The notes below the pieces were generated by a model that was not told the origin of the DNA, made no database searches, and was given only the letters and a program-made list of their open reading frames with translations. Of a stretch of 49,907 bases of DNA, positions 1 to 43,027 are shown piece after piece. The DNA lies in assembly GCA_963766885.1 (NCBI GenBank), contig CAVYBO010000002.1:241141-291047 (forward strand). Reading direction: 5' to 3'. Origin of the DNA: an uncultured bacterium (GTDB taxonomy: Bacteria > Patescibacteriota > Minisyncoccia > Phycocordibacterales > CAIRYW01). The first letter of the stretch is position 1. Every line of letters begins with the position of its first letter. Made by a program: the position numbers and the translations under genes.

Positions 1-25
1 TCAGGCAAGAAGAGAGTTAAGATAA

Positions 26-547: not shown

Positions 548-562
548 TTTTTACTTTGACCT

Positions 563-1114: not shown

Positions 1115-1118
1115 ATAT

Positions 1119-1565: not shown

Positions 1566-1760
1566 GATATTTTAAAATAATTTGTAAATGTACGGAGGTA
1601 TTACAACAAAAAACCCTCCGCAAGGGTGAGAGCTTACGCTCTCCACATCCGTTTCCAGATATGGCCAGTGACGACATCCCCTATACGAAGGGTTTTTTAG
1701 TCGTCACTGGACTCTTTTCACCATGCCCAGCGACTCGCTGGGTTTAGGCTACTTTCTTTA
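1566..1760 (-). promoter_or_regulatory. GC-enriched structured leader or small ncRNA upstream of the PH-SHOCT/HNH operon
   Basis: Four hairpins in about 150 nt: cggagg/cctccg at 1593-1620; gagagc-ttac-gctctc at about 1629-1644 (GUAA tetraloop on the minus strand); perfect 11-bp stem ccagtgacgac/gtcgtcactgg at 1665-1710; cccagcg-act-cgctggg at 1726-1742. A U6 run follows a short alternative stem on the minus strand. Confidence 0.4.
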
Positions 1761-1862
1761 TTCAGTTGTCTTAATATAATACCAAATATTATGGCATTAG
1801 GGATACCCTAGCTTAGGTTAGGATTGTTGCGAAGTCTAAGTTACCAACAGTCTGTTATTATT

Positions 1863-2519
1863 ATGTTTATGGAATACCGTAAAAATATTTGGTTCTCACC
1901 GAGAAAAATCCTTGCCCGATATGAGGAAAAAAAGAAAGAATTAGGAAGTAAAATTGAATCTTCAAAATTTAAGATACTGAACGAAGCAAAATCAGTCGCT
2001 ATAATGCTTTTAGGCATTCAAAAAATACAAAGCAGGGAGTATTGGCTCCAACTCGTTGATCCAAAAGAACAAACGCCCGATATTAGAACTGCAACTCATT
2101 TAAAAGAGCTAAGCAATTTCCCCCTTACATATCAAGATGTAGAAGTTGTCACTTTAGAGAAGCATTCAAACGAAGACATTGAGAGTTTTTTAAAGAGAAC
2201 CAAACTTTCCGAATCAAAATCATACCAAGAAGACACAATTATTTTGTGTGTAGTCAATAAAAACATACAAACAAAATCATGGAAAGAAATTAGCAAATCA
2301 CTTGGGCAAATTAAAAACAATGTTGTTGTATATATTTTAGGTAGAACAGATCCTATTGATCCAAAGTACCAAATTGCTTGCGTGTACCCCTCATTCACAC
2401 ATGCAATAAAGTTTGATGTTCAAGAGGAAGTTCTCAAACCGGCTAGAGATACTATGCAATTCAAAAGATCAACAAAAAGATCAGAGCAAAAATCTACTGA
2501 AAATTTTGAGCCTTTTTAG
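1863..2519 (+). CDS. Hypothetical protein (219 aa from the first ATG; ORF opens at 1824 with TTG)
   Basis: Uninterrupted ORF immediately upstream of and co-oriented with the serine recombinase. No motif recognised. Confidence 0.4.
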   Translation: MFMEYRKNIWFSPRKILARYEEKKKELGSKIESSKFKILNEAKSVAIMLLGIQKIQSREYWLQLVDPKEQTPDIRTATHLKELSNFPLTYQDVEVVTLEKHSNEDIESFLKRTKLSESKSYQEDTIILCVVNKNIQTKSWKEISKSLGQIKNNVVVYILGRTDPIDPKYQIACVYPSFTHAIKFDVQEEVLKPARDTMQFKRSTKRSEQKSTENFEPF

Positions 2520-2594
2520 GGTTTAAAGTTACCAACACTTTGCCAACTTGAAGGACTCTAGACTTCCAAACAAGTCTGCGTCATTACTTAGTGT

Positions 2595-3926
2595 ATGAAG
2601 ACAATAGAAAAACCGACAGGAACAGTAATAAAAGAAGTAGTTCCAGTAAAAGTGAAATATGTGCTTTATGCGAGAAAAAGCACTGAGGATTCTGAACGGC
2701 AAATCTTGAGCATTGATAGCCAAATCAAAGAGATGTTGCAACTTGCAGATCGTGACGGCCTTGAAGTTGTAGCAATGAAGAAAGAGTCTCATTCAGCAAA
2801 AGAAACAGGGCAAAGGCCAATATTCAATGAAATTGTTGAAGAAATACGCGAGGGCAAGTACAACGGTATTCTGGCCTGGGCCACTGACCGCATCTCTCGC
2901 AACGCAGGAGATTTAGGTAAAGTTGTAGATTTAATGGACGCAGGAATTCTTCAAGAAATACGAACTTACGGGCAAAGATTTACTAACAATCCAAATGAAA
3001 AGTTTTTATTAATGATTCTTGGTTCTCAAGCAAAATTAGAAAACGATAACAGAGGAATCAACGTTAAACGTGGACTGCGAACAAGAGTAGAGATGGGACT
3101 TTGGCCCGGCATTGCACCGGTTGGATACCAGAACCAGAAACACATGGATAAAAAATGTCAGGTCATTATTGATCCTGACAGAGCACCTATTGTAAAAAAG
3201 ATTTTTGAAAAAATGGCATACGAAAAATGGTCTGGTAGAAAAATATATAATTGGCTCAAGTTTGAATTGAACTTCAAGACTCTGGGAAATCACAATATTG
3301 CTTTAGGGAACCTCTATCGCCTACTGCAAAATTCTTTTTACTACGGCATTTTTGAATATCCTAGAGAATCTGGAAATTGGTATCAAGGCAAGCACGAGCC
3401 GATAATCGATAGAGCTCTCTTTGACAAAGTTCAGGAGCAATTGAAGCGTGACAAGATAGTACGTGAAAATCGAGAATTTGCATTCACAAAGTTATTCAGC
3501 TGTGGCCTCTGTCAATCCGGAATATCGGCAATGGAAAAATACAAACAACTAAAAGATGGAACTTCTGCTAAGTATGTGTACTACTGTTGTTCCAAGGCAA
3601 AAGACAGGAATTGCAAAAATATGTACATCCGCGAAGAAGATTTAATTGAAGAACTTTTCAAAATCATAGACATAGTAGACATCAACGAGTTAGGTATGCG
3701 AATGAAGCTTGAAGAAGAAATCAAGCGATTCAATCGACTTCAGAGACTTGCGGCCAAAGATAAACCGAAGATGCAGATCGACGAGAATGATATTGCTACA
3801 CGCGAATACGCCAAATATGTGCTGCGAGAAGGCACCCCGCTTGAGAAGCGCGAACTGATGGGACATTTGAGAAGTAGACTGGTGCTATTGGATAAAAAAA
3901 TTACCCTATTAAAAGATCAGAATTAA
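2595..3926 (+). CDS. Large serine recombinase (phage-integrase type)
   Basis: N-terminal resolvase catalytic motif YARKSTEDSERQILSIDSQ. Central recombinase domain, Cys-rich zinc ribbon (CGLCQS...YYCCSKAKDRNC) and a coiled-coil C-terminus. 443 aa. Confidence 0.9.
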   Translation: MKTIEKPTGTVIKEVVPVKVKYVLYARKSTEDSERQILSIDSQIKEMLQLADRDGLEVVAMKKESHSAKETGQRPIFNEIVEEIREGKYNGILAWATDRISRNAGDLGKVVDLMDAGILQEIRTYGQRFTNNPNEKFLLMILGSQAKLENDNRGINVKRGLRTRVEMGLWPGIAPVGYQNQKHMDKKCQVIIDPDRAPIVKKIFEKMAYEKWSGRKIYNWLKFELNFKTLGNHNIALGNLYRLLQNSFYYGIFEYPRESGNWYQGKHEPIIDRALFDKVQEQLKRDKIVRENREFAFTKLFSCGLCQSGISAMEKYKQLKDGTSAKYVYYCCSKAKDRNCKNMYIREEDLIEELFKIIDIVDINELGMRMKLEEEIKRFNRLQRLAAKDKPKMQIDENDIATREYAKYVLREGTPLEKRELMGHLRSRLVLLDKKITLLKDQN

Positions 3927-6900
3927 ATGTTTCTGAAATTTTAATAGGCGCATCTACATTATCATCAAGAACCTTGTAAACTTTTGGTACATATTCTTTG
4001 TATGAGGCTTCCTCGCTTCCAACAAAAACAATTTTATCCTGATCTTCAAGTTTAAAATTTTTAAATGTCTCTCTGTGTTTTTTCCAAAATGCGGCTAGTT
4101 TTTCTTTGTCTAAAACCTTGGTGAATTCTCTTATATTTGGTACATATTTCATTCCGTCTTCTCGAGCTGATGCAATTGCATTGGCAAAATTCCTAAAAAG
4201 ATAATCTACAAAATATTCTGCATTTTTTCTTTCTTTTGGATTAAAACAAAATTCGAAAAGATAATCGTTGATAATACCTTTAATTGAATGCTTATCTTCC
4301 TTTCCAGCCGGATCATAATAGCCACATCCAACACCAAGATTTATCTCGTCATTAGCAAGTTGGTAAACAATCAAACTTCCAATGCGAGTTTTCATCTCGG
4401 TGACTTTTTTTTCGACATCAGATTTCTGTACGACACCCTCTGCGATTTTCTCTTCCAAATATTGATTGTACTTTCCAGTAAAGTTAGATACTTGGAGAGC
4501 TGCGATTTCATCAAAGATATTTTTCTTTGTATCAATATAGAGTTTCTTAAATATCACAAACACCCTCTGTGAAATTTCTCTCATTTCTTCTCGCACAATG
4601 TCTTGTGAATTTCCCTGTGTTGGTGCTTTTTCATCTGCATGTTTAGCGATTGCCCTTGATAGGTCGAAGATATCTCCGCCACGATCAGCACTACAAGATA
4701 ACCGGAATATCATTAAATCGTGTAGTCCCAAAACCCCTCTATCTGCGCTAGAAAGTATATCCAAAACACTATCGCCAGCATGTCGCCCTTCTCCAAAAAC
4801 CCATTCCGCTATCTCTTTAATATTCTCTTCAGTATTATGAGAATGCCCTCCTAGAGAATCAGCCCACCCAGCATCATTTAATAATCTCGTTAAGAAATAA
4901 TCTAAATTATGCCGCAAACCAAGGCCAATATCTTGAAACTCAAGCAAAGAATATTCAGTAATACTCTTTAAAAGATACTTAATAATTGCAGTGGCTGGCG
5001 CCGATTTAAGTCCACGGGCATTGTTTACTAAAATTCGCCAGAGTCTTTCTCTGGACCCTTCGCCAAAGTTGTAATCAAATTTTGGATCTAAAAAGGCTGA
5101 GTCGACCGTGATTGATTCTCCGACGATCTTGTCTCTCCAGTTCACATAGAAACGATGTTGACCAATCTCTACTGGTTTCGATAGATTCACTATCAAATCT
5201 AGATATGTCTCAAGATTTCTACCATTAGTCCATCCACCGTTAAAGCAAGCTAACGAAGTGCGCACATCTTCTGGAACATTGTCAATTTCTGCGTAACTAT
5301 TATTTTCAGGAAAACTGTCCCGAGAATTTTTTAATCTGACATCAACATTAAATACTTGATCCAAAAGAAAGCGTTGGTGGCTATCTTCTGGAAATTTTTT
5401 TATATAGTCTTGATAGTAAGTTGAATTTTTATATGCCGTTTCCCTCGCCCCCTGTTGTTTTTTGGGATATCCGTCATCATAAGGTACAACTAGAGAAAAG
5501 AAACCTCGGCCGCCTTTTGTTTCCGTATCGTAAATCTTCCTAAAAATACTTGGGTAATGAATATAGATAAGCAACAGGTTAACTAAATCTCTTTTATCAA
5601 AATCTGTATTTTGGAAATCTGTATTTTGAAGATCAAACATTACAACTGTATTAATCAATCTTTTAATTTTTCTTACATCCCCAATAAATGGCAGATATTT
5701 ATGGTATGCGGATGATTCATAAATATCCAACAAGCCACCAATAGCCTGTCGCATTGGCAGTGGGTCAACAAGACTACTAGTAAGCACTTTTTCTAGATTA
5801 TCTGACACATATTTCGCAAGATCTTTTCTATCCAAGTAAAGACTAATTTTAATGTTCACAAATTTCTCTAAAAACTCACTGATTTTTTCTGAGTCGTGGT
5901 TTTCAGCTTCTAGCACGCCAATATTTTCTGTGTCGTAGCAAATAACATATGATATGTTCGGAAATGCAAAACTTTTTCTGATTACAAATAATATATCTTT
6001 GATTTCAGCGAAGCTGATTCTATCAAGATCATCAATAACGACAATTACTTTTTTAGGAAATCTTTTTAGAATTGCACTTAGATCATCACATGCCTCGTCA
6101 GCTGTATAATTGACCGTAAAATTTGGTAAATTGATGCCAAATAATGAAAAGCGCTTTACCTCTCTTAAAAGACGAGCATACCTAGAAATTAGGGGTCTTA
6201 TCTCCGGAATGAAGGCGTCCTTTTGAATAGCGTGAACTAGCCCGTCAATAAATACATCCAGAAGACTTGGTGTGCCTAAATATCGTAATGGACTAAACTT
6301 GTAAACCACTGTTTCATTTGGATGATTTTCTTTCCAATAGTCCCTACAAAAGTTAATAAAAGTCGATTTACCGATTCCCCAAGGTGCATCGATTCCAAAT
6401 ACAAAACTCTCGGGTGATCCACCATTGAAAACCTGTTCGGAAAATCTGTTAGCTTTTTCTGCAAAATTCAATAGATCATTTTCCCTGCCTTCTAGTTCAG
6501 CATCGACAACAAAAAAAGAATCTCTTTCTTTGTCCTTCCAAAGTAACTGTCTATACATAACTAGAATTCCTAAAATGAAAGGCCCAGAAATAATCGTTAA
6601 GATTTGTTTGATATCTAAAAATGAAACAATATTTGAATCCGAAGCAGACAAAAAACCTCCCCACGCAAGACTAAGCCAGATTCCAAAACAAAATGAAACC
6701 AGAACATCTACGCGCCAGCTTTTGACTATCTTTTTTAAGTCAGAAAAGAAACCTCGTGCTAGTAAATAAATTATTAGAAATAAAATGGCAGCAAAACAGA
6801 ATGCTACTGCCTGGTATTCATAGTTACCAACGTAAATCCATTTATTTATTTTGCCAGAAACTGTTGATGAAAAACGCCAAATTTCTGCACTCAAGACGCC

Positions 6901-7008
6901 GATAAATGTTATTTTAATTAGTACCACTAGATTAGCCGTTATAATCTGAAAATCAGATAGTAATTCTTTGGATCTAGTAATATGTTTTTTTATTGAATAA
7001 AAGTCCAT
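3901..7008 (-). CDS. KAP-family P-loop NTPase, membrane-anchored, 1035 aa
   Basis: Walker A in KAP-typical context FGIDAPWGIGKSTFINF and Walker B KKVIVVIDDLDR. About four hydrophobic helices in the first ~160 aa. The 3' end overlaps the convergent recombinase gene by 26 nt. Confidence 0.8.
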   Translation of the reverse strand: MDFYSIKKHITRSKELLSDFQIITANLVVLIKITFIGVLSAEIWRFSSTVSGKINKWIYVGNYEYQAVAFCFAAILFLIIYLLARGFFSDLKKIVKSWRVDVLVSFCFGIWLSLAWGGFLSASDSNIVSFLDIKQILTIISGPFILGILVMYRQLLWKDKERDSFFVVDAELEGRENDLLNFAEKANRFSEQVFNGGSPESFVFGIDAPWGIGKSTFINFCRDYWKENHPNETVVYKFSPLRYLGTPSLLDVFIDGLVHAIQKDAFIPEIRPLISRYARLLREVKRFSLFGINLPNFTVNYTADEACDDLSAILKRFPKKVIVVIDDLDRISFAEIKDILFVIRKSFAFPNISYVICYDTENIGVLEAENHDSEKISEFLEKFVNIKISLYLDRKDLAKYVSDNLEKVLTSSLVDPLPMRQAIGGLLDIYESSAYHKYLPFIGDVRKIKRLINTVVMFDLQNTDFQNTDFDKRDLVNLLLIYIHYPSIFRKIYDTETKGGRGFFSLVVPYDDGYPKKQQGARETAYKNSTYYQDYIKKFPEDSHQRFLLDQVFNVDVRLKNSRDSFPENNSYAEIDNVPEDVRTSLACFNGGWTNGRNLETYLDLIVNLSKPVEIGQHRFYVNWRDKIVGESITVDSAFLDPKFDYNFGEGSRERLWRILVNNARGLKSAPATAIIKYLLKSITEYSLLEFQDIGLGLRHNLDYFLTRLLNDAGWADSLGGHSHNTEENIKEIAEWVFGEGRHAGDSVLDILSSADRGVLGLHDLMIFRLSCSADRGGDIFDLSRAIAKHADEKAPTQGNSQDIVREEMREISQRVFVIFKKLYIDTKKNIFDEIAALQVSNFTGKYNQYLEEKIAEGVVQKSDVEKKVTEMKTRIGSLIVYQLANDEINLGVGCGYYDPAGKEDKHSIKGIINDYLFEFCFNPKERKNAEYFVDYLFRNFANAIASAREDGMKYVPNIREFTKVLDKEKLAAFWKKHRETFKNFKLEDQDKIVFVGSEEASYKEYVPKVYKVLDDNVDAPIKISETFNSDLLIG

Positions 7009-7064
7009 TGAACCTCAACAATAGCAAAAATTTACACCTCTTTAAAGACTACCTCTAATGTATT

Positions 7065-7103
7065 CGACCCCTATGGGTCGCCCCAGACCCTTAGGGGTCT
7101 GGG
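7065..7103. other. Two adjacent GC-rich hairpins between the KAP gene and the tRNA-Ser 3' end
   Basis: cgaccc-ctat-gggtcg (7065-7080) is directly followed by cccagaccc-ttag-gggtctggg (7082-7103). No U-tract on either strand. Confidence 0.5.
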
Positions 7104-7128
7104 TCACAAAACTACCAGATTTATAGGG

Positions 7129-7215
7129 CGGAGGGTAGGAGATTTGAACTCCTGATGGGATTTCTCCCATACTGCCTTTCCAAGGCAGCGCACTAGACCG
7201 CTATGCGAACCCTCC
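7129..7215 (-). tRNA. tRNA-Ser (anticodon GGA), class II with long variable arm
   Basis: Minus-strand cloverleaf. Acceptor GGAGGGT/ACCCTCC; anticodon stem CTGCC/GGCAG with loop TTGGAAA; variable arm ATGGGA-GAAA-TCCCAT; T arm AGGAG-TTCAAAT-CTCCT; discriminator G. CCA is not encoded. Confidence 0.88.
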
Positions 7216-9348: not shown

Positions 9349-12300
9349 TTAATTCCCTGTAGATGTTGCTGTTGAATCTGAGGAACTGCCGCTTGAAGAA
9401 TTATCAGCTGAAGAATCAGAAGATGATGATCCTGGATTGTCAGATGAAATATTTGCTGAAGCAGTAGTAGAGCTTGATGTATCGGATGATGAAGAAGTGT
9501 CAGTCGATGTAGTAGTTGAAGAGGTTGGGTTATCTCCTGCTGTATCGCTTGTTGATGTTGCGGTAGAAGAAGCGTCTGAATCATTTGAACCAGAACCCGA
9601 TGAAGAGCCTCCTCCTGAATTTGATGAGTTGTTTGACGAGTCGCTTGAATCATCCGCACAATCGCCCGGTTCGGTTTGTTGTACGCCGTTTTTAAAGTAC
9701 ACACAAATTGGCTGGCCAGTTGCCCTGTCATAAATCACAAATCCTGTTTGGTGAACGTCACTCGAATTTTTGATTACTAAATTGCTTACTGTTAGTTTTT
9801 CAATAATAACTTCTGCAAAGTTAACAACATTGTCTACAATTGTTGCCCCAAAACTTTGTAGCGAAGAAATAAGCGAATCACTTGAAGTATCGTCTGTTGA
9901 AGTTGAAACTCCCGCCAGTTGATTGAGTTCAAGCTCTAGGTTGGAAACTGCGGCAGAAGTTGAAGCCTGTTCTTGCGACAGAGCCTGCACTCCGACAAGA
10001 GCGATATTTCCTAATTCAAAATCAGGGATAGTAGTGGTAGAGCCTCCCAAACCTCCAAAGGCGGCGTAAAAGTCTTGGGCAACAGGACCAATGTATGGTA
10101 TCCCCGGAGCAGCTATGTAGTTCCACTCTGTAATAGGCAGATTATTGATTGAGGTAAGGATAGACTGATTATTTATGGATGTGAAATTATCCTTTAGATT
10201 TCTGTCTGAAACAACTCCTTCCACACCCGTAGGGGAAATGCAGGCTCCGTCTGAGAAGTTAACACTTCCGTCTCCATTCACTCTCATGTACGCGGTGCAA
10301 TACCCAACCATCGTTGAACTTGCTGTTGAGTTAGAAAGGCAATCTCCAAAAGCGGAAGCGTAACAAGCCGATGAGGTGTTCTTGTATCCAAAAGCTGAAG
10401 AATATCTTGCGGAAGCGGTGTTGTCCGCACCCACTGCATTTGAGTAGTGGTAGCCCGAAGCGGTGTTACAGAATCCTGCTGCAAGCGTATAAAATCCAGA
10501 AGCAGTATTGCAAAAACCGAATGAGCTTGCTATATATCCAGGATCACTGTTGTGATAACCGACGGCTGTATCGTAATTTCTGCCCTGCGTCATTGTATTG
10601 CAGTTTCCTATGAGAGTTGCCATGTATCCTGATACGGTATTGGAGTTTCCTATCGCTATCGCATCTCCTCCGTAGCAAGCGGTGTTGTTTGACCCGACAG
10701 TGAGATCATTTGCTGCGGTAGAGCAATTGCAAAGGCCGAAAGCAGAGGCGCAATTTGCACTTATAATATTGGAAACACCAAAAGCTGAAGCTTTGGAAAC
10801 TGCACATATGAGATTGTATGCTCCAGAGGCAGTTGAAGCATTGGAACTGGTACACACCACATTTTGGTATCCAAAAGTAAAATCACGAAGTCCCGCCGAT
10901 GTACTCTGGAAGCCAAAGGCAGATGAATAATTTCCGGAAGCAGTGTTATTGTAGCCTAAAGTGCTGGAATCGGTACCGCAAGCTGTGTTATTGATACCAA
11001 AAGCTGATGAATAATTTCCGGAAGCAGTGTTGCCTTGTCCAATATTTATTCCACCGCTTGAATTGCATGCAAAAATATTCCCGCAGACAGAGAGGGCTTG
11101 GGACGGGTTGTCGGTGCCGATGCCGACCTTGCCGTCTCCTCGAATAAGCATCAAGTCAGTCTGGCTTCCGGGAGTTCCGGCGGAAAAAATATCTCCGTGA
11201 GCAGTGTCGGCTGTGTCTACGTTATATCTGATGTATCCCTTTGTTGATCCAACGCTGTCAAAACCTATTTTATAAGAAGTATTGCCGGAATAGAATGAGA
11301 CTCCGGGAGAAGTGGAGCTGAAAGTTCCGGAAGTGCCTACATTGATAAATCGGGTTGGGCTAAAATCTCCGGATGTATTGAATGTTCCGAGTATAGATCC
11401 ACCGCCCTCGTCCGCATTATTAATGATTCGGAGCAATCCGCTGCAGGCGTCTATGCCAAAATTCTGATTATTGCCGTATGCAAACTTCATGTGCGGAGAA
11501 TTTACGGTGCCGTTGTCAAATAAAATACTTCCCTTGCCCGAAGCGGCAGTAGTGTATGTCCAGCCTCCGCCTCCGACTATTATCTGACCATTGCCTTTGG
11601 AATTTATCGGCAAGTCGGCATTGGCTGTGGAAGCCAAGGTGCAAATTCCTTGCGTACCTATATTGCCATAGACATCTAAAGGATCAATAGGTGTGGTGGT
11701 TCCAATTCCCAATCTGTTATGCGCATTGTCCCAAAAAAGTTGAGAATTGTTTTGTGAAAGCAATCCGGAAGCGCCAGCAAATGGAATCGAGCCTTGTGTC
11801 AAAAATGAAAATGTTGGAGCGTTTGTGACCGTAAGATTTCCCAATGTTCCTAATGAGGTTAATGATGAAGAAAGGATATTTGATGCAAGGGTTGTGCCGG
11901 TGAGAGTTCCTGCTGGAGCCACTACTGCAGATGTTCCTGCAGCTGTGATTAGACCTTTGCCGTTTACAGTGAAAGTCGGTATAGTTGTCGATGAACCAAA
12001 GCTTCCTGTGTTTGAGTTGACGGTTGCAAGAGTTGTTCCGATTGATGTTGTTCCACTTCCTGAAATATCTCCTGAAAGAGTAATGTTTTGGTTGTCTGTG
12101 AGATAGGTGTTGCTGTCCACACTGCCGTCTGCTTTGAGAAATTGGGAAGATGTGCCGCCTGATGTGGTAAAGGAGTTTGCTATCAAATTTCCACTCGCGT
12201 CTATTGTTGCGTTTCCGTTTGCAAATGAAGCAGAGCCATCGTTATTTATCCACGCTTCACTTCCGTTAGTATTTCCCAGAGTGATGCTTCCATTTTTAAA

Positions 12301-14022
12301 AGAGCCTGAACCCACTGATTGAATAGTGGAATAGCCGTCCCAAGCCTGCCTGGGATTAGGTACCGTCAAACCATCATCGGCTAAAAATATTGTTGGGGTC
12401 AGCACGCCCATTGGAATAATGCTGACTCCCGGCTGATGTGTAATGATTGTCGGATAACAAGTTCCTATGTATCCGGCAGTAACAAATTGAAAACCATTGC
12501 TGCCGTCTGCCGCTTCAAAAGAAGCTAGCGCCTGATTGCTTGGACCTCCCGAGCCAGTAACAACCAGACCATTCGGGTCTGCTCCCACACCGCCCGGAGG
12601 AGTTAATCCTAAAGTGGTTTGACCCGCAAAAGCGGCATTTCCACAGGCATCTATTGTTGCATTTCCGTTTGCAAATGAAGCCGAGCCATCTGCATTTATG
12701 TACGCATTATTGAGATCAAGAAGATGTGTTGGATTTGTGGTTCCGATACCCACATTTCCAGTTGTATTGTTGTAAATATCATTGCCTGACTGTGTCCATG
12801 GAGAGTTCAGAGTATTTCCGCACCAGCTCAATCCTGTACCTGCAGTAATTTGCGTTGAAGGATTTTCATAAAAGTTTTCCCAGTTTGTCGTTGAGGCCGT
12901 CAGCGGAATATTGTATCCAGCTGCAGTTGAAAAAATTCCCGTGGTGTTATCGTAAGCAATCGGACCGGAAGTAGAAAATACCCCTCTTGTTGTAGATGTG
13001 GAGAAAGCTGCAGCTGCAAGACCAGTAAGATGAGATGCGTCTCCATAAAAAGCAGGGGCGCAGATATTTCCAGCAAAAGTAGAAGTACCTGTGCCAGAAG
13101 CGGTGATATCTCCAGAAAAATCTCCGTTTTGGAGAGTGGAAATATCATTTGAGTTTTGTGTAATTGAATCAGTAACTCCTGAAATGTTAGGTCCTGCTCC
13201 TCCGCCTCCTCCAAAAACATTTGTGTAGTTATTAACTACGGGCTGTATGCTTGCAATTTGATTTTTAAGAGAATTATATAGAGCAAGCAGGGTTTGATAG
13301 CCTGAATGGTTTGACGATGAAGAATTTGGTTGTGTTTGTTGGACAGAAACATTTGATACAGCTGTTTCAAGCTGGCTCTGCGATTCAGATTGCGGGGAAT
13401 TATTATTGGTTGGATTTCTGCGAGTAACAACTGGAGCAGCAGTTTCTGGAATATTTGGAGCATAAAAAACATTGTAGATTGCATTTGTCAGCGGATCTGT
13501 TATCGGTTTAAGAGCACTGTTGAACGCATCGCCAACATTTGCAGTAGACGGCACTGATGAAATTACGCTCGGTGTTTGATCAATTATTTGATTTCCAGTA
13601 TTTTTATAAACTTTTGCTGTTCTGCCAACTTCATTTATCACACCATTACCTAAATTTGAATACATCCCAACCGCCTGTGAAAGAAGAGGCTTATAAAACG
13701 AAGCAATGCCTGATACCAAGCCAGAGTTGGAAGTTGTATTGATATCCTGAGCGTAAGCTCTGTCAGAGAAGGTTAGAAGACCTATCAATTGTCCAGTGGT
13801 TAGAGGAGATTCTTTGCTGGTTGGAGTTAGAGAGTTTTTGTCTCCTTCTTTGGCAGGAACTAGTGGGAAATCTGTCAGTAATGCTATGTTTTGGTCCTTT
13901 CTTTCAAACAAATAGTAGAGATATTCCTTGGAGAGTGGGATAGCTACACCTTTGATGACAAGAGAGATGATTATTGCACCAAAAGAGAGCTTCAGAATCT
14001 TAGATTTAAGGATTTTGATCAT
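9349..14022 (-). CDS. Giant N-terminally anchored surface protein: adhesin-like repeats, S74-type intramolecular chaperone domain and Ser/Thr-rich tail
   Basis: ORF 9349..14031, with the first ATG at 14022. TM helix FGAIIISLVIKGVAI. YadA-head-like repeats NTASGNYSSAFG. The motif VSDRNLKDNF...IGPVAQDFYAAF is typical of tail-fibre/endosialidase chaperone (peptidase S74) domains. The last ~100 aa are almost pure S/T/D/N. Confidence 0.8.
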   Translation of the reverse strand: MIKILKSKILKLSFGAIIISLVIKGVAIPLSKEYLYYLFERKDQNIALLTDFPLVPAKEGDKNSLTPTSKESPLTTGQLIGLLTFSDRAYAQDINTTSNSGLVSGIASFYKPLLSQAVGMYSNLGNGVINEVGRTAKVYKNTGNQIIDQTPSVISSVPSTANVGDAFNSALKPITDPLTNAIYNVFYAPNIPETAAPVVTRRNPTNNNSPQSESQSQLETAVSNVSVQQTQPNSSSSNHSGYQTLLALYNSLKNQIASIQPVVNNYTNVFGGGGGAGPNISGVTDSITQNSNDISTLQNGDFSGDITASGTGTSTFAGNICAPAFYGDASHLTGLAAAAFSTSTTRGVFSTSGPIAYDNTTGIFSTAAGYNIPLTASTTNWENFYENPSTQITAGTGLSWCGNTLNSPWTQSGNDIYNNTTGNVGIGTTNPTHLLDLNNAYINADGSASFANGNATIDACGNAAFAGQTTLGLTPPGGVGADPNGLVVTGSGGPSNQALASFEAADGSNGFQFVTAGYIGTCYPTIITHQPGVSIIPMGVLTPTIFLADDGLTVPNPRQAWDGYSTIQSVGSGSFKNGSITLGNTNGSEAWINNDGSASFANGNATIDASGNLIANSFTTSGGTSSQFLKADGSVDSNTYLTDNQNITLSGDISGSGTTSIGTTLATVNSNTGSFGSSTTIPTFTVNGKGLITAAGTSAVVAPAGTLTGTTLASNILSSSLTSLGTLGNLTVTNAPTFSFLTQGSIPFAGASGLLSQNNSQLFWDNAHNRLGIGTTTPIDPLDVYGNIGTQGICTLASTANADLPINSKGNGQIIVGGGGWTYTTAASGKGSILFDNGTVNSPHMKFAYGNNQNFGIDACSGLLRIINNADEGGGSILGTFNTSGDFSPTRFINVGTSGTFSSTSPGVSFYSGNTSYKIGFDSVGSTKGYIRYNVDTADTAHGDIFSAGTPGSQTDLMLIRGDGKVGIGTDNPSQALSVCGNIFACNSSGGINIGQGNTASGNYSSAFGINNTACGTDSSTLGYNNTASGNYSSAFGFQSTSAGLRDFTFGYQNVVCTSSNASTASGAYNLICAVSKASAFGVSNIISANCASAFGLCNCSTAANDLTVGSNNTACYGGDAIAIGNSNTVSGYMATLIGNCNTMTQGRNYDTAVGYHNSDPGYIASSFGFCNTASGFYTLAAGFCNTASGYHYSNAVGADNTASARYSSAFGYKNTSSACYASAFGDCLSNSTASSTMVGYCTAYMRVNGDGSVNFSDGACISPTGVEGVVSDRNLKDNFTSINNQSILTSINNLPITEWNYIAAPGIPYIGPVAQDFYAAFGGLGGSTTTIPDFELGNIALVGVQALSQEQASTSAAVSNLELELNQLAGVSTSTDDTSSDSLISSLQSFGATIVDNVVNFAEVIIEKLTVSNLVIKNSSDVHQTGFVIYDRATGQPICVYFKNGVQQTEPGDCADDSSDSSNNSSNSGGGSSSGSGSNDSDASSTATSTSDTAGDNPTSSTTTSTDTSSSSDTSSSTTASANISSDNPGSSSSDSSADNSSSGSSSDSTATSTGN
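10922..11031 (-). repeat. In-frame tandem-type repeat inside the giant surface gene
   Basis: Perfect 26-nt copy gatgaataatttccggaagcagtgtt at 10922-10947 and 11006-11031, offset 84 nt (28 codons), encoding NTASGNYSS units. A second ~41-nt repeat with 2 mismatches lies at about 12200-12240 and 12650-12690 (DGSASFANGNATIDA). Confidence 0.85.
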
Positions 14023-14028
14023 AATATA

Positions 14029-14052
14029 CAAAGGAATTATAGCATTCCTTTG
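14029..14052 (-). terminator. Hairpin downstream of groEL (possible terminator or attenuator before the giant gene)
   Basis: 9-bp stem caaaggaat/attcctttg with a 6-nt loop. Followed on the minus strand by U/A-rich sequence and then the ATG at 14022. Confidence 0.4.
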
Positions 14053-33164: not shown

Positions 33165-33539
33165 CTACACAAACAAATATGCAAGAGCGGCGGCGAGGAT
33201 GGCGATGTTTTTCATGAAGTTCACTCTGTCGGACATGCGCGCCATTGGATCCTGAATCGTCCAAAAGTTGTGCATAGTGAAGGTAACCGGGACAAGAAAA
33301 AGTATTATAAGAATAACTCCGATGTCCTTCAGAGAAACTGGCAGAACCGAAGCAAACATTATAAATAGGCCGCCGATAATTATCATGGCGCCGCTGAGTG
33401 CCACCGCTAGCTTTGGAGAAGGCACATGCTTTGAGGCCGAATAGCCCGCCATCATATTAAGGTGTGTAAAATGATTAATACCGCCCATTACAAAGTATCC
33501 GCCAAAAATTACCTCGCTTAAAATTAATATATATTGCAT
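33165..33539 (-). CDS. DoxX-family membrane protein
   Basis: 124 aa with four hydrophobic helices and N-terminal GGYFVMGGINHF. Confidence 0.65.
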   Translation of the reverse strand: MQYILILSEVIFGGYFVMGGINHFTHLNMMAGYSASKHVPSPKLAVALSGAMIIIGGLFIMFASVLPVSLKDIGVILIILFLVPVTFTMHNFWTIQDPMARMSDRVNFMKNIAILAAALAYLFV

Positions 33540-33587
33540 AATATTTGAATTAATTCTGATAAGAAGTTAACCTTAATATTATACTCC

Positions 33588-33767
33588 TTAATTTATCCTT
33601 TCTCCAAGCTTGTACGCAGCCCAAATTCCAAGCACAGCAAAAACGGAACTCCAAAATAATGAGGAAATAGAAAAAATAGAACTGTCACCACCCCAAAGAT
33701 ACGGGACAAAGCTGCCGACAGTTGAGCCGACAGCCATTCCCATCCAAACTAAACTCTTGGTGCTCAT
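33588..33767 (-). CDS. Small two-helix membrane protein (59 aa; below the cutoff of the supplied ORF track)
   Basis: Hand translation gives MSTKSLVWMGMAVGSTVGSFVPYLWGGDSSIFSISSLFWSSVFAVLGIWAAYKLGERIN. The ATG is 5 nt after the stop of the upstream SHOCT gene. The ORF fills an otherwise empty gap. Confidence 0.4.
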   Translation of the reverse strand: MSTKSLVWMGMAVGSTVGSFVPYLWGGDSSIFSISSLFWSSVFAVLGIWAAYKLGERIN

Positions 33768-33771
33768 TCGC

Positions 33772-34041
33772 TTATACCTCTAGATCCTTCTTTTTTTCTT
33801 CAAATTCTTTCTTGTCTATTTCGCCTTTAGCATATCTTTCTTTTAGAATCTGAAGCGCTGAATCGCGGTGAAAATCGTGCATTCCGTGCCAACGGCCGTG
33901 CCTTCCTCTGCCAACGAGAGCCCTGACAATTACAATAACCAGAGAAATAACAAGCGCCCAAAATATAATAGTTAACAGAAGCCCAAGTAATCCAAGGCCT
34001 AATCCACTGACTCCTCCTCCATAATAATAGTGTCCCATCAT
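33772..34041 (-). CDS. SHOCT-domain membrane protein
   Basis: Gly-rich N-terminus plus a TM helix, then a SHOCT motif LQILKERYAKGEIDKKEFEEKKKDL. Confidence 0.7.
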   Translation of the reverse strand: MMGHYYYGGGVSGLGLGLLGLLLTIIFWALVISLVIVIVRALVGRGRHGRWHGMHDFHRDSALQILKERYAKGEIDKKEFEEKKKDLEV

Positions 34042-34111
34042 AGTATTTTTATTATTATCTTATAAATTGTATTCTCAGTTAATTATACTAAATTATCGGC
34101 AAAATTGGTGC

Positions 34112-34966
34112 TTAGCTGTTATAAACCAGCAATTTTTCTTTTACTAGGTTTTTGACAGCTTCTACTGCTGGTTCGGCATATTTATAGGCCGCAACTTCTT
34201 CAGTTGTATCGATGCTTTTTTTCAAAGCATTTTTATATGCCACCCTGATTTCGGTATTAATGTGTACAATTGCAACACCGTTCAAAATTGCATTGTGAAC
34301 ATCCTCGGCGTTGTTTCCAGAGGCGCCGTGAAGTACAAGTGGAATGCCTGTGATTTCGCTTATCTCTTTTACCCTTTCAATATTAAGCCTGGGATCCGGC
34401 ATATCTTTGAGCATGCCGTGGATATTGCCAACAGCCGGCGCAAACAGGTTGATTCCTGTTTCTTTGACAAACCTTACTGCATCCTCCGCGGTCGTAAGCA
34501 TTTTATCTCCCACTGCCGCACCTTCTGGAATTGAATCCAAAAGTTTAGAAGACTGTCCGATGTAGCCAAGTTCTCCTTCAAGCAAAACCTCCGGCCTATT
34601 TGATTTCACATATTCAACACACTGTTTGGTTATTTTTATATTCTCATCAAGAGAAAGCTTGGCTCCGTCATAGATAACGGAATCGAAACCAGCGTCAATC
34701 GCTTCTTTGACTCTTTCAAAAGAATAGGTGTGATCCGCGTTTAGGAAAATCTGCATTCCTTGATCTTTGTAGCTTCTAACCAGCGCCACAGATTGCTTAA
34801 CACCAATAAAATCCCGCTCACCCTCAGAAACTCCGATAATTACAGGCAATTTCAATTCCATAGCAGCTTCCACGATTCCCTTAAGCGTTTCAAGGTTGGA
34901 AATATTAAAGTGCCCAATTGCTTTTTTCTCAGATTTTGCTTTTTGTATAAGTTCAATTAATTTCAT
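34112..34966 (-). CDS. fba: Class II fructose-bisphosphate aldolase
   Basis: KAIGHFNISNLE, LNADHT and VLHGASG motifs. 284 aa. Confidence 0.9.
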   Translation of the reverse strand: MKLIELIQKAKSEKKAIGHFNISNLETLKGIVEAAMELKLPVIIGVSEGERDFIGVKQSVALVRSYKDQGMQIFLNADHTYSFERVKEAIDAGFDSVIYDGAKLSLDENIKITKQCVEYVKSNRPEVLLEGELGYIGQSSKLLDSIPEGAAVGDKMLTTAEDAVRFVKETGINLFAPAVGNIHGMLKDMPDPRLNIERVKEISEITGIPLVLHGASGNNAEDVHNAILNGVAIVHINTEIRVAYKNALKKSIDTTEEVAAYKYAEPAVEAVKNLVKEKLLVYNS

Positions 34967-38357: not shown

Positions 38358-40433
38358 TTATATATCAATCCTTGCCAGTTTAGCGTTGGATTGAATGAAA
38401 GCTTTTCTGGATGGCACGTCATTGCCCATCAGAATTTCTACAATTTTGTCGGCTTCAACAATATCTTCGATTGTCACTCTTTTTAGAACTCTGTTATTTT
38501 TATCCATCGTTGTTTCGGCAAGTTCTTCGGCATTCATTTCTCCTAAACCTTTGTAACGTTGAATGGAAACTTTCTTTTGTTTTTTGCCATCATCCTTTGA
38601 TTCTTGCTCTGCAGTATTTTCACCTTCAACATTTCCCTCTTCCGGATTTTCCTCTCCTTCAGTTACAGAAAGCTTGTTTGATTTTAGGAAATTTTCTTTC
38701 TCTTCTTCAGAATAAAAATAATGCACTTCTTTTCCTAGTTTCAATTTATAAAGCGGCGGCTGGGCCACGTAAATAAATCCAGCTTCTATCAAAGGCCTAA
38801 AGTGCCTGTAAAAAAGTGTTAGAAGCAAAGTTCTGATGTGCGCTCCGTCCACGTCGGCATCTGTAGCAATGATTATTTTGTGATAGCGAAGTTTGGAAAT
38901 ATTAAACACATCACCGATTGCAGTACCTAAAGCGACAACAAGATTTGAAATTTGCTCTGAGGCAAGCATCTTGTCCAAACGAGCTCTTTCGATGTTTAGA
39001 ATCTTTCCTCGGAGAGGCAGGATCGCTTGGGTACGTCTATCGCGACCAGTTTTGGCAGTACCTCCGGCAGAATCTCCTTCTACGATAAAAAGTTCTGATT
39101 CGGATGCGTCCTTGCTTTGGCAGTCTGCAAGCTTGCCTGGCAGTGTCATTCCTTCAAGCGCGCCTTTTCTGAGAATTGAATCCTTGGCAGCTTTGGCAGC
39201 CTTTCTGGCCTTCATAGCAAGAATTACTTTGTTTATGATTAACTTTGCGTCATCAGGATTCTCTTCAAGAAAATTAGAAAATGCATCTCCAAGAACTCCA
39301 GCGACAGCGCCTTGTGCTTCCATACTTCCAAGTTTGGATTTGGTTTGGCCTTCAAATTGAATTTCTGGAAGCTTCACAGAAACCACAGCTGTGATTCCTT
39401 CCAAAACATCGTCGCCAATAAAAGTATCGTCTCCGTCTTTGGTATATCCATTCTTTTTGGCGTAAGTGTTGATTGTCCTTGTCATCGCGGTTTTGAAACC
39501 AGTGATGTGCGTGCCACCTTCTGGGTTGTAAATATTATTCGCAAAGCCGAATATTTTTTGAGAAATATCATCAATATATTGAAGCGAGACTTCAACCACG
39601 GTTTTGCCTTCTTCTTTTTCTACATAAAAAACATTTTTGTGAACAGGCTTTGAAAGCGTGTTATAAAACTTTACTAAAGAAATAAGTCCTCCTTCAAAAT
39701 AAAAACTGACTGATGGAATATCAAGCCCTTCGTCTTTGATGAAAAAATTATCTTCAAGATTTATTTTTCCAGTATATTCTCTGGCATCAACAATGTTTAT
39801 CAAAAGATTTTTTACCAAATAGGCCTGCTGGCGAAGATGGGAAACAATTTTAGCCCAGTCAAAAACAATTCCTTCTTTGAAAATTTCTGCGTCAGGCTTG
39901 AAAGTTGTGATTGTGCCGTGAGCTTTTGAAGTTCCAGTTTTTTTGACTTTGTATAGAGGCTTGCCGATTTTGTATTCCTGAACATATTTTGCTCCATCAC
40001 GGTGAACTTCAACTTTTGTGTTTACAGACAAAGCGTTTACCACAGACGCGCCCACTCCGTGAAGTCCTCCAGAAAATTTGTAGGCGTTGTTATCAAACTT
40101 TCCTCCGGCGTGCAAGACAGTCATGATTGTTTCGAGCGCAGAAACTTTGGTTTTGGAATGCATATCCACAGGAATTCCCGCTCCATCATCCGATATGCGA
40201 ACAAATCCGTCTGGCAAAAGCACCACTTCAATTCTGGAACATCTACCGGCCATTGCTTCGTCTCTGGAGTTGTCAAAAATTTCCCAGATCAAATGATGAA
40301 GTCCATCTGGACCAGTTGTGCCAATATACATTCCAGGACGCCTTCGGACGGCCTCTAGGCCCTCCAAAACGGTAATCTGGTCAGCACCGTATTGCTGCTT
40401 TTTTTCCTTGTTTTTTTCTGCTTCTTTTGCCAT
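38358..40433 (-). CDS. gyrB: DNA gyrase subunit B
   Basis: YGADQITVLEGLEAVRRRPGMYIG, the GHKL ATPase domain, Toprim EGDSAGG and a C-terminal tail. 691 aa. Confidence 0.98.
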   Translation of the reverse strand: MAKEAEKNKEKKQQYGADQITVLEGLEAVRRRPGMYIGTTGPDGLHHLIWEIFDNSRDEAMAGRCSRIEVVLLPDGFVRISDDGAGIPVDMHSKTKVSALETIMTVLHAGGKFDNNAYKFSGGLHGVGASVVNALSVNTKVEVHRDGAKYVQEYKIGKPLYKVKKTGTSKAHGTITTFKPDAEIFKEGIVFDWAKIVSHLRQQAYLVKNLLINIVDAREYTGKINLEDNFFIKDEGLDIPSVSFYFEGGLISLVKFYNTLSKPVHKNVFYVEKEEGKTVVEVSLQYIDDISQKIFGFANNIYNPEGGTHITGFKTAMTRTINTYAKKNGYTKDGDDTFIGDDVLEGITAVVSVKLPEIQFEGQTKSKLGSMEAQGAVAGVLGDAFSNFLEENPDDAKLIINKVILAMKARKAAKAAKDSILRKGALEGMTLPGKLADCQSKDASESELFIVEGDSAGGTAKTGRDRRTQAILPLRGKILNIERARLDKMLASEQISNLVVALGTAIGDVFNISKLRYHKIIIATDADVDGAHIRTLLLTLFYRHFRPLIEAGFIYVAQPPLYKLKLGKEVHYFYSEEEKENFLKSNKLSVTEGEENPEEGNVEGENTAEQESKDDGKKQKKVSIQRYKGLGEMNAEELAETTMDKNNRVLKRVTIEDIVEADKIVEILMGNDVPSRKAFIQSNAKLARIDI

Positions 40434-40533
40434 GTTTTATCAATAAAATAAAAGCCTGTTTAGAGCTTATTTGTCCATAAATTATAGCATTTTTCTACCT
40501 GACCTACCAGCCCAAAATGATTATAAATTAATC

Positions 40534-40575
40534 AAAAACAGAAGACCCTCCGATGCCAGAGCAACGGAGGGTCTT
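40534..40575 (-). terminator. Intrinsic terminator at the 3' end of the ncRNA
   Basis: Perfect 11-bp stem aagaccctccg/cggagggtctt with a 12-nt loop, followed on the minus strand by CUGUUUUU. Confidence 0.7.
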
Positions 40576-41021
40576 AAGATTAACGGAGCATAGCGTGCGG
40601 TTTAGCCTTACGCATTCTTTTGCCGCTTTCGCGACTTATTTATCATGTTGATCATAGATCATCTACCAGGTATTACCACGGCAAACTCCCACTCGACGCG
40701 GGCAACAGGCGAATCACGCAGTTATGTTTGCTTGCGCAAACCAGGAAACCTCTAGGAGAGATTGAAGAATGGGGCCTATCCCCACAAATCACAACTTTCG
40801 TTGCATCTCTTCCTACGTTGAGGTCCTACAACCCCACTTTAATCCTCTAAGATTACATCGTCTCTAAACGAGATCTCTTTCGAGGACATAGACATTTCTG
40901 TCGGTGTGGTTTGGGCTGTTGCTTACAACTTTTCAACGAATAAATTCGTATCGACCAGCTTTTTATAGCCAATCTACAGTCGCGAACAATCGCTTTTGCT
41001 TTATTCCATGGAACTATGCTG
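40534..41021 (-). ncRNA. Large (~0.49 kb) highly structured ncRNA of uncertain family (weak RNase P RNA-like motifs; not assignable by eye)
   Basis: No minus-strand ORF of 60 aa or more across a 640-nt gap. GC is about 45-55% against about 37% in the flanks. Five hairpins carry GNRA loops only when read on the minus strand (plus-strand coordinates 40891-40902, 40875-40884, 40792-40803, 40726-40741, 40622-40635). A long bulged helix pairs 40748-40762 with 40805-40824. Promoter lies at 41028-41055 and the terminator at 40534-40575. Confidence 0.6.
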
Positions 41022-41027
41022 TACTAA

Positions 41028-41055
41028 ATCTTATACCCAACGGACAGCTTGTCAA
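41028..41055 (-). promoter_or_regulatory. Sigma70-like promoter of the large ncRNA
   Basis: Minus strand reads TTGACA (41055-41050), 16-nt spacer, TAAGAT (41033-41028). Located about 20 nt after the pheT stop codon. Confidence 0.5.
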
Positions 41056-41077
41056 ATAGAGTTATGCACCTCAAATT

Positions 41078-43027
41078 CTACCTTACTTTCCAGCCTTCTT
41101 TTGAATTCAAAGCTTCGGTCATTTTGTCCATAATTTCGTTGATTTCTTTGTCTTCAAGAGTTTTTTCAAACGATTGGAAAACAAGCCTGTACGCATAAGA
41201 AGTTTTACCCTCTTTAGAAAACACATCAAACAAATCTTCGCGAATAAGCAAATCACCGCCGTGTTGTTTGATTATTTCAAGTATCTCAGTTTCTTTGTTT
41301 TCACCTGGCACAAAAACAGCAATGTCGCGCACAATAAATGGATAAATAGAAAAAGGCTTAAATTTTGATTCTATTTTTGGAACTTCAAGTGATACGTCTG
41401 AAACATCAGGAAGCAAAGAAACCAAGTAGGTCAAATCAAGTTCTAGAATTCCATCTTTATTATTTATGATTCCAATCTGTTTGGAGCCATGCATAATTAA
41501 TCCGCCAGTATCATCGATTGTACAAACTATATTTAAATTTACACCAAGTTTTTCAAACATTTTGTCACGAACAATTTTGATTTCATCATTTGATTTTTCA
41601 CCTTTGAAGCTCTTGGTTTGAGCAATACCTACGCAAAGCGAAGTATACTCTCCGCTTTTTGGAAAAACTTTACCGATTTCAAAAACTTTTATTCTATCCA
41701 AACCAAGAAGTGGTGCGTTATGCAGATTCATCTTCAGAACCTTTTCGATATTTTCGGAAAGATTTGTGCGAAGAAAGTTTTTATCTGTTGCTATAGACTT
41801 TTCAATTTCCAAATCGCCTTTGTTGGTTAGAGCATACGTTGAAACTTCAGAAAAATTATCTTGGGCAAAAATATCTTTTATTTTTTCAATCCAATAAAAA
41901 CTTTTATTAATTAATGGAGAATTTTTTACCGGCATAAGTAATGTAGCTGGAATTTTGTCATAGCCATATATTCTGCCAACTTCTTCAACAATATCTTCTG
42001 GAATAGTAAGATCTAGTCTTTGTTGAGGAATGCCAAGCAAAAGTTCATCACCATTTTCTTCAACTTTAATTTCTAATCTTTCTAAAATAGAAATTATCTC
42101 TGCTTTTTCAATATTTACTCCAAGAACTTTTTGGATAAATTCTGCTGTAGTAGTAATTTTTACTTGTTCTTGTTTGTGCGGATAAACATCTACAACTTTT
42201 CCAATTTTGACCTCAGAATGATTTGATGCAATAAGCTCGGTCAATTCATTCATTCCATCAATTGCTAATGTTTGCGAAATATTATTTTCAAATCGTTTTG
42301 AAGAATCGTTTTTGATGCCAACTTTTGTGGAAGTCTTTCTGACAGAAACCGGATCAAAATTTGCAGCTTCAAGAATCAAATTTTTTGTATCTTTGGTCAC
42401 CTCTGCGCGCTTGCCCCCTTTGATTCCAGCAATTGCAAGCGCGCCAATGTCATCTGCAATAACAAGCATATTTGAATCAAGCTTAATTTCTCTGTTGTCC
42501 AAAGTGGTTATCGTCTCACCCTCTTTTGCAAGACGAACAACAATTGCTCCTTTGACTTTATCAGCATCAAAAGCATGTATCGGCTCGCCCATATCAAGCA
42601 TTACATAATTGGCAATATCAACCACGCTGTTGATGGATCTTTGCCCCAGAGCTTCTAATTTTTCCTTAATCCAATCCGGAGAATTGCCAATTGAAATATT
42701 TTCTACTCTCCTGCCGATGTATCTTCTGCATAAATTTGAATTGATATTGATTTCAAGAGATTTGGTTTCGGATATTTCAAACTTAGTCTCTGTTTTATCT
42801 TTTTTCTGTAATTTCAAAATAGCTGAAAGTTCGTAAGCAATCCCTTTGTGCGAAAGAGCATAACAAGAACGGTCAGGAAGAATCTTGATATCAAAAATGG
42901 TATCGTTTTCTTTTTGATTCATCTCTTCAATCTCGAACACGCCAAAAGTAAGAGCATCACTCACCTTTTCTGGCGAAGGTAGCGCACTTATGAAATATTT
43001 TTTAAGCCAATCGTAGGAAATTAACAT
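41078..43027 (-). CDS. pheT: Phenylalanine--tRNA ligase beta subunit, shortened (649 aa)
   Basis: N-terminus MLISYDWLKKYF, the B3/4 and B5 regions and a C-terminal FDX-ACB-like domain. The OB-fold tRNA-binding insert usually found near the N-terminus appears to be absent. Confidence 0.9.
   Translation of the reverse strand: MLISYDWLKKYFISALPSPEKVSDALTFGVFEIEEMNQKENDTIFDIKILPDRSCYALSHKGIAYELSAILKLQKKDKTETKFEISETKSLEININSNLCRRYIGRRVENISIGNSPDWIKEKLEALGQRSINSVVDIANYVMLDMGEPIHAFDADKVKGAIVVRLAKEGETITTLDNREIKLDSNMLVIADDIGALAIAGIKGGKRAEVTKDTKNLILEAANFDPVSVRKTSTKVGIKNDSSKRFENNISQTLAIDGMNELTELIASNHSEVKIGKVVDVYPHKQEQVKITTTAEFIQKVLGVNIEKAEIISILERLEIKVEENGDELLLGIPQQRLDLTIPEDIVEEVGRIYGYDKIPATLLMPVKNSPLINKSFYWIEKIKDIFAQDNFSEVSTYALTNKGDLEIEKSIATDKNFLRTNLSENIEKVLKMNLHNAPLLGLDRIKVFEIGKVFPKSGEYTSLCVGIAQTKSFKGEKSNDEIKIVRDKMFEKLGVNLNIVCTIDDTGGLIMHGSKQIGIINNKDGILELDLTYLVSLLPDVSDVSLEVPKIESKFKPFSIYPFIVRDIAVFVPGENKETEILEIIKQHGGDLLIREDLFDVFSKEGKTSYAYRLVFQSFEKTLEDKEINEIMDKMTEALNSKEGWKVR

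Follow-up and report, generated by a model that had tools for sequence, protein, structure and literature searches.

Here we describe a predicted structured RNA of several hundred nucleotides, bracketed by a promoter and an intrinsic terminator of its own, that lies between pheT and gyrB in an uncultured bacterium of the Patescibacteriota (Minisyncoccia; Phycocordibacterales; CAIRYW01). The window, by which we mean the whole stretch of DNA analysed, comprises 49,907 nucleotides (GenBank assembly GCA_963766885.1, contig CAVYBO010000002.1, positions 241,141 to 291,047). With a probability of roughly 55%, we consider the unit to be a genuine, lineage-specific, acquired and independent gene whose product, a compactly folded non-coding RNA, acts in trans and belongs to an undescribed family. 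Its nearest counterparts in kind may, by analogy, be the large ornate RNAs carried along with mobile DNA. Judging from its borders, the unit is a 563-bp insertion at the end of pheT, a feature that, together with the flanking repeat, was absent from the initial annotation.

The two flanking genes, both on the minus strand, were identified by homology as pheT (41078-43027; phenylalanine--tRNA ligase beta, with B3_4, B5 and FDX-ACB domains) and gyrB (38358-40433; DNA gyrase B), and they belong to a conserved synteny of S2, EF-Ts, glycosyltransferase, pheS, pheT ... gyrB, sortase, PfkB kinase and aldolase. The gap between them, initially put at about 640 nt and free of minus-strand open reading frames of at least 60 aa, measures 644 nt, with a longest minus-strand frame of 39 aa, and no protein homologues were found for the six frames of the RNA unit. 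The GC excess over the flanks claimed for it holds against the pheT side (0.45-0.47 in the unit, 0.34-0.36 in pheT), whereas the 5' part of gyrB, at 0.46-0.485, is just as GC-rich. A separate 573-nt minus-strand stretch of the window without a frame of at least 90 aa (33539-34112) is AT-rich and not a non-coding RNA; it apparently contains two short tandem frames with hydrophobic stretches.

Table 1. Features of the pheT-gyrB interval and of the mobile block at the start of the window (P, predicted pair probability).
Feature	Position	Strand	Basis or remarks
sigma-70-type promoter	41028..41055	-	-35 TTGACA 41055-41050, 16-nt spacer, -10 TAAGAT 41033-41028
structured RNA core, 434 nt	40587..41020	-	closed by AGCAUAG 41020-41014 / CUAUGCU 40593-40587
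5'-central domain	40828..40919	-	helix ACAGCCC/GGGUUGU; pair P 0.59-0.98, single-sequence prediction
CUC-GAAA-GAG hairpin	40884-40875	-	sequence
long bulged helix with terminal three-way junction	40743..40827	-	P 0.71-0.99
CAAC-GAAA-GUUG hairpin	40803-40792	-	sequence
3' hairpin series	40622..40741	-	sequence, GNRA count, pair probabilities
intrinsic terminator	40531..40575	-	15-nt arms 40575-40561 / 40556-40542, 4-nt loop, then CUGUUUUUG
direct-repeat copy 1 GGCTGGAAAGTAAGGTAGAA	41076..41095	-	in-frame pheT end (G W K V R stop) + AA; repeat D1
direct-repeat copy 2 GGCTGGTAGGTCAGGTAGAA	40493..40512	-	G W stop V R stop; repeat D1, spacing 583
inserted segment, 563 bp	40513..41075	-	between repeat copies; promoter, RNA, terminator only
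gyrB extended -10 TGCTATAAT	40481..40489	-	3' of terminator, outside insertion; conserved in L006, L007
HNH protein	563-1114	-	block 1-7156
SHOCT protein	1119-1565	-	block 1-7156
LOOT RNA (RF03000)	1628-1750	-	Rfam 15, 89.6 bits
large serine recombinase	2595-3926	+	block 1-7156
KAP NTPase	3901-7008	-	block 1-7156

In single-sequence prediction the core has a minimum free energy of -141.3 kcal/mol, its closing helix forms with P = 0.94, and it falls into four parts: a weakly predicted 5' region, a domain at 40919-40828, a bulged helix domain at 40827-40743, and a run of hairpins extending to 40622. The 5'-central domain encloses the GACA-GAAA-UGUC hairpin (40902-40891) and a GUCCUC/GAGGAU helix (40887-40882 / 40847-40842), which includes a string, GAGGAUUAAAGUGGGG, resembling conserved region I (CR-I) of RNase P RNA. 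The three-way junction that terminates the bulged helix carries two arms, GCAAC-GAAA-GUUGU (40804-40791) and GUGGGG-AUAGG-CCCCAU (40785-40769). In the 3' series stand GUUUGC-GCAA-GCAAAC (40741-40726), CCCGC/GUGGG (40702-40688), GUUUGCCG/UGGUAGAU with a GUAA-type cap (40686-40661) and GUCGC-GAAA-GCGGC (40635-40622), with an additional hairpin, GUG-GUAA-UAC, at 40679-40670. All five GNRA hairpins listed in the initial annotation were found where it had placed them, as were the GGGG-AUAGG-CCCC hairpin (40783-40771) and the bulged helix (40824-40805 / 40762-40748; P 0.89-0.99), and all of its hairpins are highly probable in the thermodynamic ensemble. The high-probability helices include at least 12 G.U pairs; on the other strand these would be C.A mismatches, which fixes the strand as minus. 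A 12-nt internal repeat of the RNA, UCYUAGAGGWUU (40841-40852 and 40746-40757; 10 of 12 positions matching), serves as 3' strand in each of two distinct helices, 95 nt apart, and may be an internal domain duplication.

The abundance of GNRA-capped hairpins was compared with chance. Eight such hairpins have a stem of at least 3 bp and five a stem of at least 4 bp, against means of 1.26 and 0.51 in dinucleotide shuffles, none of which (0/2000) reached the observed counts, an enrichment of 6-10 times; the minus strand of the whole window carries 1.37 and 0.53 per 500 nt. The z-score of the minimum free energy over 40530-41030 was -5.9 on the minus and -3.8 on the plus strand, with values of -4.2 and -2.8, respectively, for the core only, so that in the folding model the structure is strand-specific. 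Twenty other 434-nt windows used as a control gave a mean z of -0.07 and a minimum of -3.3. This sole outlier among the 20 (~13001-13434, minus strand) lies inside a 1560-aa open reading frame (9349-14031).

The promoter annotated just after the pheT stop is present and agrees with the consensus at 10 of 12 positions, TAAGAT being an imperfect -10. The terminator, likewise recovered about 100 nt before gyrB, has arms that are 93% complementary (inverted repeat I1) and are followed by a U-run. A simple scan of the region gave three promoter-like sites where 2.2 are expected and two terminator-like sites where 1.3 are expected, with no significant enrichment. Spacing to the promoter puts the inferred transcription start at ~41022-41020, where the closing helix begins, and this coincidence, together with the correct orientation of promoter and terminator, supports a transcription unit. 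If expressed, the RNA would start ~7 nt past TAAGAT, its first seven bases would pair with bases 428-434 to close a 434-nt multi-domain fold, and the strong terminator would end the transcript at ~486 nt; gyrB would then be transcribed from its own extended -10 promoter.

The insertion footprint consists of an imperfect direct repeat of the last pheT codons (Table 1). The two copies are identical at 17 of 20 positions; the first is the in-frame end of the gene, and the second is a displaced pseudo-end with the gyrB promoter directly after it. Copy 2 aligns with GGTTGGCAAGTTCGTTAGAAAAATGCTACAAT / GGTTGGCAAGTTCGTTAGAA at the pheT end of the closest relative (L006), and the sequence that follows it, AAAAATGCTATAAT, matches the pheT-gyrB junction of the same relative. 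When the pheT end was used as a query against the gap, none of 5000 shuffles gave a match as good as the observed 17/20; an unconstrained repeat search reached 17/20 in 5 of 300 shuffles, and the argument therefore rests on the position of the repeat. Without the 563 bp the site would read GGCTGG..AGGTAGAAAAATGC. A second short direct repeat, TTTGTCCATAAATT / TTTGTCCATAATTT (13/14; window 40470-40483 and 41123-41136), has one copy within pheT and one downstream of the gyrB -10, ahead of the ATG; its order is reversed relative to the 20-nt repeat, and it is therefore probably due to chance.

The unoccupied form of the site is seen in relatives, so that pheT-end direct repeats at both borders and an empty counterpart are both present. 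In L006 the gyrB ATG lies 25 nt past the pheT stop and in a second relative, L007, the gap is 103 nt, with no RNA at the junction of either; both are different species from the window genome and not strains of it, with pheT 63% and 55% identical. Overall, identity to the nearest homologue is 63% for pheT and 83-84% for gyrB, and the genome, of which a 596-kb contig carries the window, is Paceibacteria/Taylorbacteria-like; the nearest pheT relatives occur in sample ERR10755936. Both relatives carry a TGCTAYAAT element, and a AGAAAAATGCTAYAAT-like sequence after the stop constitutes the gyrB extended -10, whereas in the window the AGAAAAATGCTAYAAT-like sequence stands 3' of the RNA unit. In L006 (4640-4698; cf. 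window 40481-40512) the gyrB promoter overlaps the last pheT codons (TTGGCA, 18 nt, TACAAT), its -35 apparently lying within the pheT end. If so, neither pheT nor the promoter would survive an insertion at this point unless this stretch were duplicated. The RNA gene would not belong to the ancestral core: a 563-bp segment may have entered at the last pheT codons, possibly by site-specific or staggered-cut integration, with a duplication of ~20 bp that left the C-terminus of pheT unharmed, as well as the gyrB promoter, whose relatives' counterpart overlaps the end of pheT.

The same junction is variable elsewhere. It is empty in L006 and L007, holds a small opposite-strand open reading frame in L009, L014 and L015, surface-protein genes in L012, and a 187-aa open reading frame in the Taylorbacteria relative L001. 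A GC-rich unit of ~230 nt at the L001 junction (5940-6195), with TTGACA-17-TATAAT on the opposite strand and a shared terminator, was considered as a possible relative and rejected: alignment scores were at shuffle level, there was no Rfam match, and the fold (z -0.65 and -0.71) was not significantly structured. Large non-coding gaps in L010 and L012 were likewise discarded as RNA loci, being scaffold N-runs and broken surface-protein genes. The two correspond to the same region (L010 632-3520, L012 14795-17683) in relatives with gyrB 83% identical, where pheT and gyrB are ~8 kb apart and repetitive glycine/asparagine-rich surface-type proteins, with N-runs, lie between them.

No integrase, transposase or reverse transcriptase was found near the unit and no recombinase within ~6 kb on either side; elsewhere in the window there is the large serine recombinase listed in Table 1, and enzymes of this type are not known to leave 20-bp repeats. 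RNA-guided (bridge-RNA-like) targeting was considered and set aside, the matches between RNA and junction being only 7-9-mers, at chance level. The recombinase belongs to a mobile-element-like block (window 1-7156) beside tRNA-Ser (7127-7215). Over these 7156 bp the block is 99.99% identical to a contig (L016) of the same strain from another sample, ERR11630394; on one side that contig ends within tRNA-Ser, at window position 7156, and on the other it runs on past window position 1 into a ParB/N6-methylase gene. The block also encodes a LOOT RNA with its own terminator. Like the pheT-gyrB unit, LOOT is a small free-standing RNA gene that has a promoter-like site, a terminator and GNRA-capped hairpins, here in mobile DNA of the same genome; unlike it, LOOT is a 121-nt member of a curated family, with which the unit shares no sequence or model match.

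Searches for homologues of the unit were broad. Comparison by blastn and nhmmer with 16 loci, including the pheT-downstream/gyrB-upstream regions of seven relatives, returned none; the intergenic comparison proposed in the initial annotation, which covered those seven, produced no homologue for R-scape covariation. Equally negative were the scans of viral contigs, with exact 17-mers and 22-mers or with degenerate multiple patterns of the RNA as a pseudo-protein, and the blastn comparisons with phages and plasmids. The pseudo-protein approach was also applied in two (JGI) metagenome scans, where 12 degenerate 24-nt windows gave 785 pattern matches, none of them confirmed. A six-frame pseudo-protein search for spurious open reading frames on homologous RNAs in a database of 5.8 billion proteins found none, and a phmmer search of 1.84 billion representatives for the 88-aa plus-strand open frame returned tandem-repeat artefacts only. 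A covariance model of the central domain (R1; 40743..40827) matched only itself in all the collected sequence. With no homologue found, the fold has no covariation support and stands as a single-sequence prediction. At present the unit thus looks, by sequence, new as a family and yet a singleton, an orphan.

Comparison with known RNA families used the 4227 models of Rfam 15, applied to the window at gathering scores and, at E <= 10, to a 751-nt region (40400-41150) and a 438-nt core. The only gathering-score matches in the whole window were LOOT and two tRNAs, and no relevant family matched either segment at E <= 10, a ceiling that hides covariance-model matches below ~15-17 bits (rough estimate). 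This covers the models whose inspection had been recommended (RNase P, tmRNA, SRP, ROOL, GOLLD, OLE, HEARO and raiA) as well as 6S and group I/II introns. The earlier statements that the unit has no tmRNA-type end or tag and is not SRP-like are borne out: ARAGORN reports only tRNA-Ser and tRNA-Thr in the window, there is no Rfam tmRNA match, and the SRP models of Rfam 15 gave none at E <= 10. A likeness to SAM-II (SAM_alpha) around UAAAUAAGUCGCGAAAGCGGC (40607-40689, minus strand) reached 14.4 bits, the gathering score being 36 (E ~1), and was dismissed as noise. A literature search found no described large non-coding RNA of Patescibacteria. Among known ornate RNAs, the unit is like ROOL, GOLLD, OLE and raiA in being a stand-alone, several-hundred-nucleotide, multi-hairpin and non-coding RNA on probably acquired DNA. 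It differs in matching none of their models at E <= 10, in being shorter than ROOL, GOLLD and OLE, and in being known from one sequence where these families have hundreds to thousands of members. ROOL and GOLLD often occur in prophages or near tRNA genes.

A unit without relatives could also be a decaying relic rather than a working gene. We consider it unlikely, though deserving of serious attention, that the RNA once served the mobility or upkeep of a larger integrated element, or belonged to a self-splicing intron, and survives between att-like repeats as a structured remnant that has lost its function. CIME elements at fda are integrase-less and att-flanked, and e14 and phage 21 integrate at the 3' end of icd and bring a substitute gene end. 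The unit shares with such elements the imperfect direct repeat of the target gene's last codons, a proximal copy that keeps the open reading frame intact and a distal copy that forms a pseudo-end beside the original downstream flank. It departs from them in having only 563 bp, no protein gene, no integrase nearby, a repeat of only 20 bp and an empty site seen in other species only. Its repeats at a gene 3' end, a pattern recalling integrase-less att-flanked remnants, the failure of the searches to find a homologue, the variability of the junction among relatives, and the presence of other mobile DNA in the genome, including the large serine recombinase block, would all suit a relic. Against this, the 563 bp hold nothing but a promoter, a closed fold and a terminator, free of gene debris, the helices are intact with many G.U pairs and few mismatches, and no group I/II intron, HEARO or other mobile-element RNA model matched at E <= 10. 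Furthermore, pheT is complete without splicing and ends in GWKVR-stop as in its homologues, and the unit has its own promoter and terminator.

More speculative still is the idea that the 563-bp segment is a protein-free mobile cassette, with a large folded RNA as its sole cargo, spreading into the pheT 3' end by means of an integrase acting in trans or the RNA's own activity, and that it is the first of a new ornate-RNA family in candidate-phyla bacteria; we regard this as a long shot.

The initial annotation had described the unit as either a divergent rnpB or a new class of large non-coding RNA. What stands of this is an unassigned, promoter-to-terminator structured RNA; rnpB is unsupported and the searches found no second member to make a class. 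That the unit is a highly divergent RNase P RNA, with CR-I, CR-IV and CR-V look-alikes as its catalytic core and large insertions in the 5' half, strikes us as highly improbable. Its ~430-nt size, its P1-like 5'/3' closing helix and its GNRA-capped peripheral hairpins do resemble bacterial type A RNase P RNA (RF00010), the look-alike strings occur in canonical order, and divergence is common among candidate-phyla RNase P RNAs: one study reports that Rfam thresholds missed 10 of 35 (PMC8172020). In the unit, however, neither the 751-nt nor the 438-nt segment matched an RNase P family of Rfam (RF00010 / RF00011) at E <= 10. The CR-I consensus is GAGGAAAGUCC, usually found ~60 nt from the 5' end of bacterial RNase P RNA. 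The sole look-alike (40847-40832, RNA position 174-189) has a UU interruption followed by GGGG and not CCGG, stands ~174 nt from the 5' end, ~110 nt too far, and is buried in local helices of the minimum-free-energy fold (P 0.59-0.96). All helices of at least 5 bp between RNA positions 1-340 and 395-428 were enumerated, and none involves positions 174-190; P4 cannot be built from this string to the 3' region, in agreement with the earlier remark that CR-I is interrupted and that no P4 pairing could be formed. The location on an insertion that is absent at the same junction of the closest relatives would also be odd for an essential single-copy gene. With no model match at E <= 10, no P4 and a CR-I-like string that is both buried and distant, RNase P is not supported, and GNRA-rich orphan RNAs should not be called "divergent RNase P" on short look-alike strings alone.

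We find it scarcely credible that the unit acts in cis, either as a long structured 3' untranslated region of pheT or as a transcription-attenuating leader of gyrB. It does lie between both genes on their strand, with a terminator ~100 nt before gyrB, but a near-consensus -35 and a -10 of its own follow the pheT stop, it matches no family of riboswitches or leaders (SAM-II, at the score given above, was the best), and relatives express pheT and gyrB without the RNA. The extended -10 of gyrB lies downstream of the terminator and is kept in L006 and L007, which have no RNA there, and this speaks against a gyrB leader. Nor do we give any appreciable weight to the view that acquired or decayed DNA encodes no functional RNA here and that the fold statistics are a by-product of composition: a singleton without conservation evidence and one background window at z = -3.3 speak for it, but the GNRA enrichment over the 2000 shuffles, the strand asymmetry, and the fact that the predicted start coincides with the closing helix and the end of the fold with the terminator speak against it.

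Returning to the reading we prefer, an independent gene for a trans-acting RNA, the behaviour of GNRA loops in other large RNAs suggests that docking of the GNRA-capped hairpins into helical receptors most likely produces a defined tertiary, possibly multimeric, architecture. The product would then be a folded RNA particle serving as a scaffold, a partner of proteins or a ribozyme, and probably not a base-pairing regulator. By cryo-EM, ROOL and GOLLD reportedly form RNA-only assemblies (PMC12286853).

If expressed and folded as predicted, the unit would represent a new large structured RNA family in a lineage with an RNA biology that has hardly been studied, and it would be a good target for cryo-EM, as ROOL, GOLLD and raiA have been. 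Patescibacteria (candidate-phyla) genomes are tiny and tightly packed, and the expenditure of 0.6 kb on a folded non-coding RNA in such a genome suggests usefulness. Furthermore, the insertion footprint leads to a testable idea, namely that RNAs of this kind may move as minimal, protein-free cassettes.
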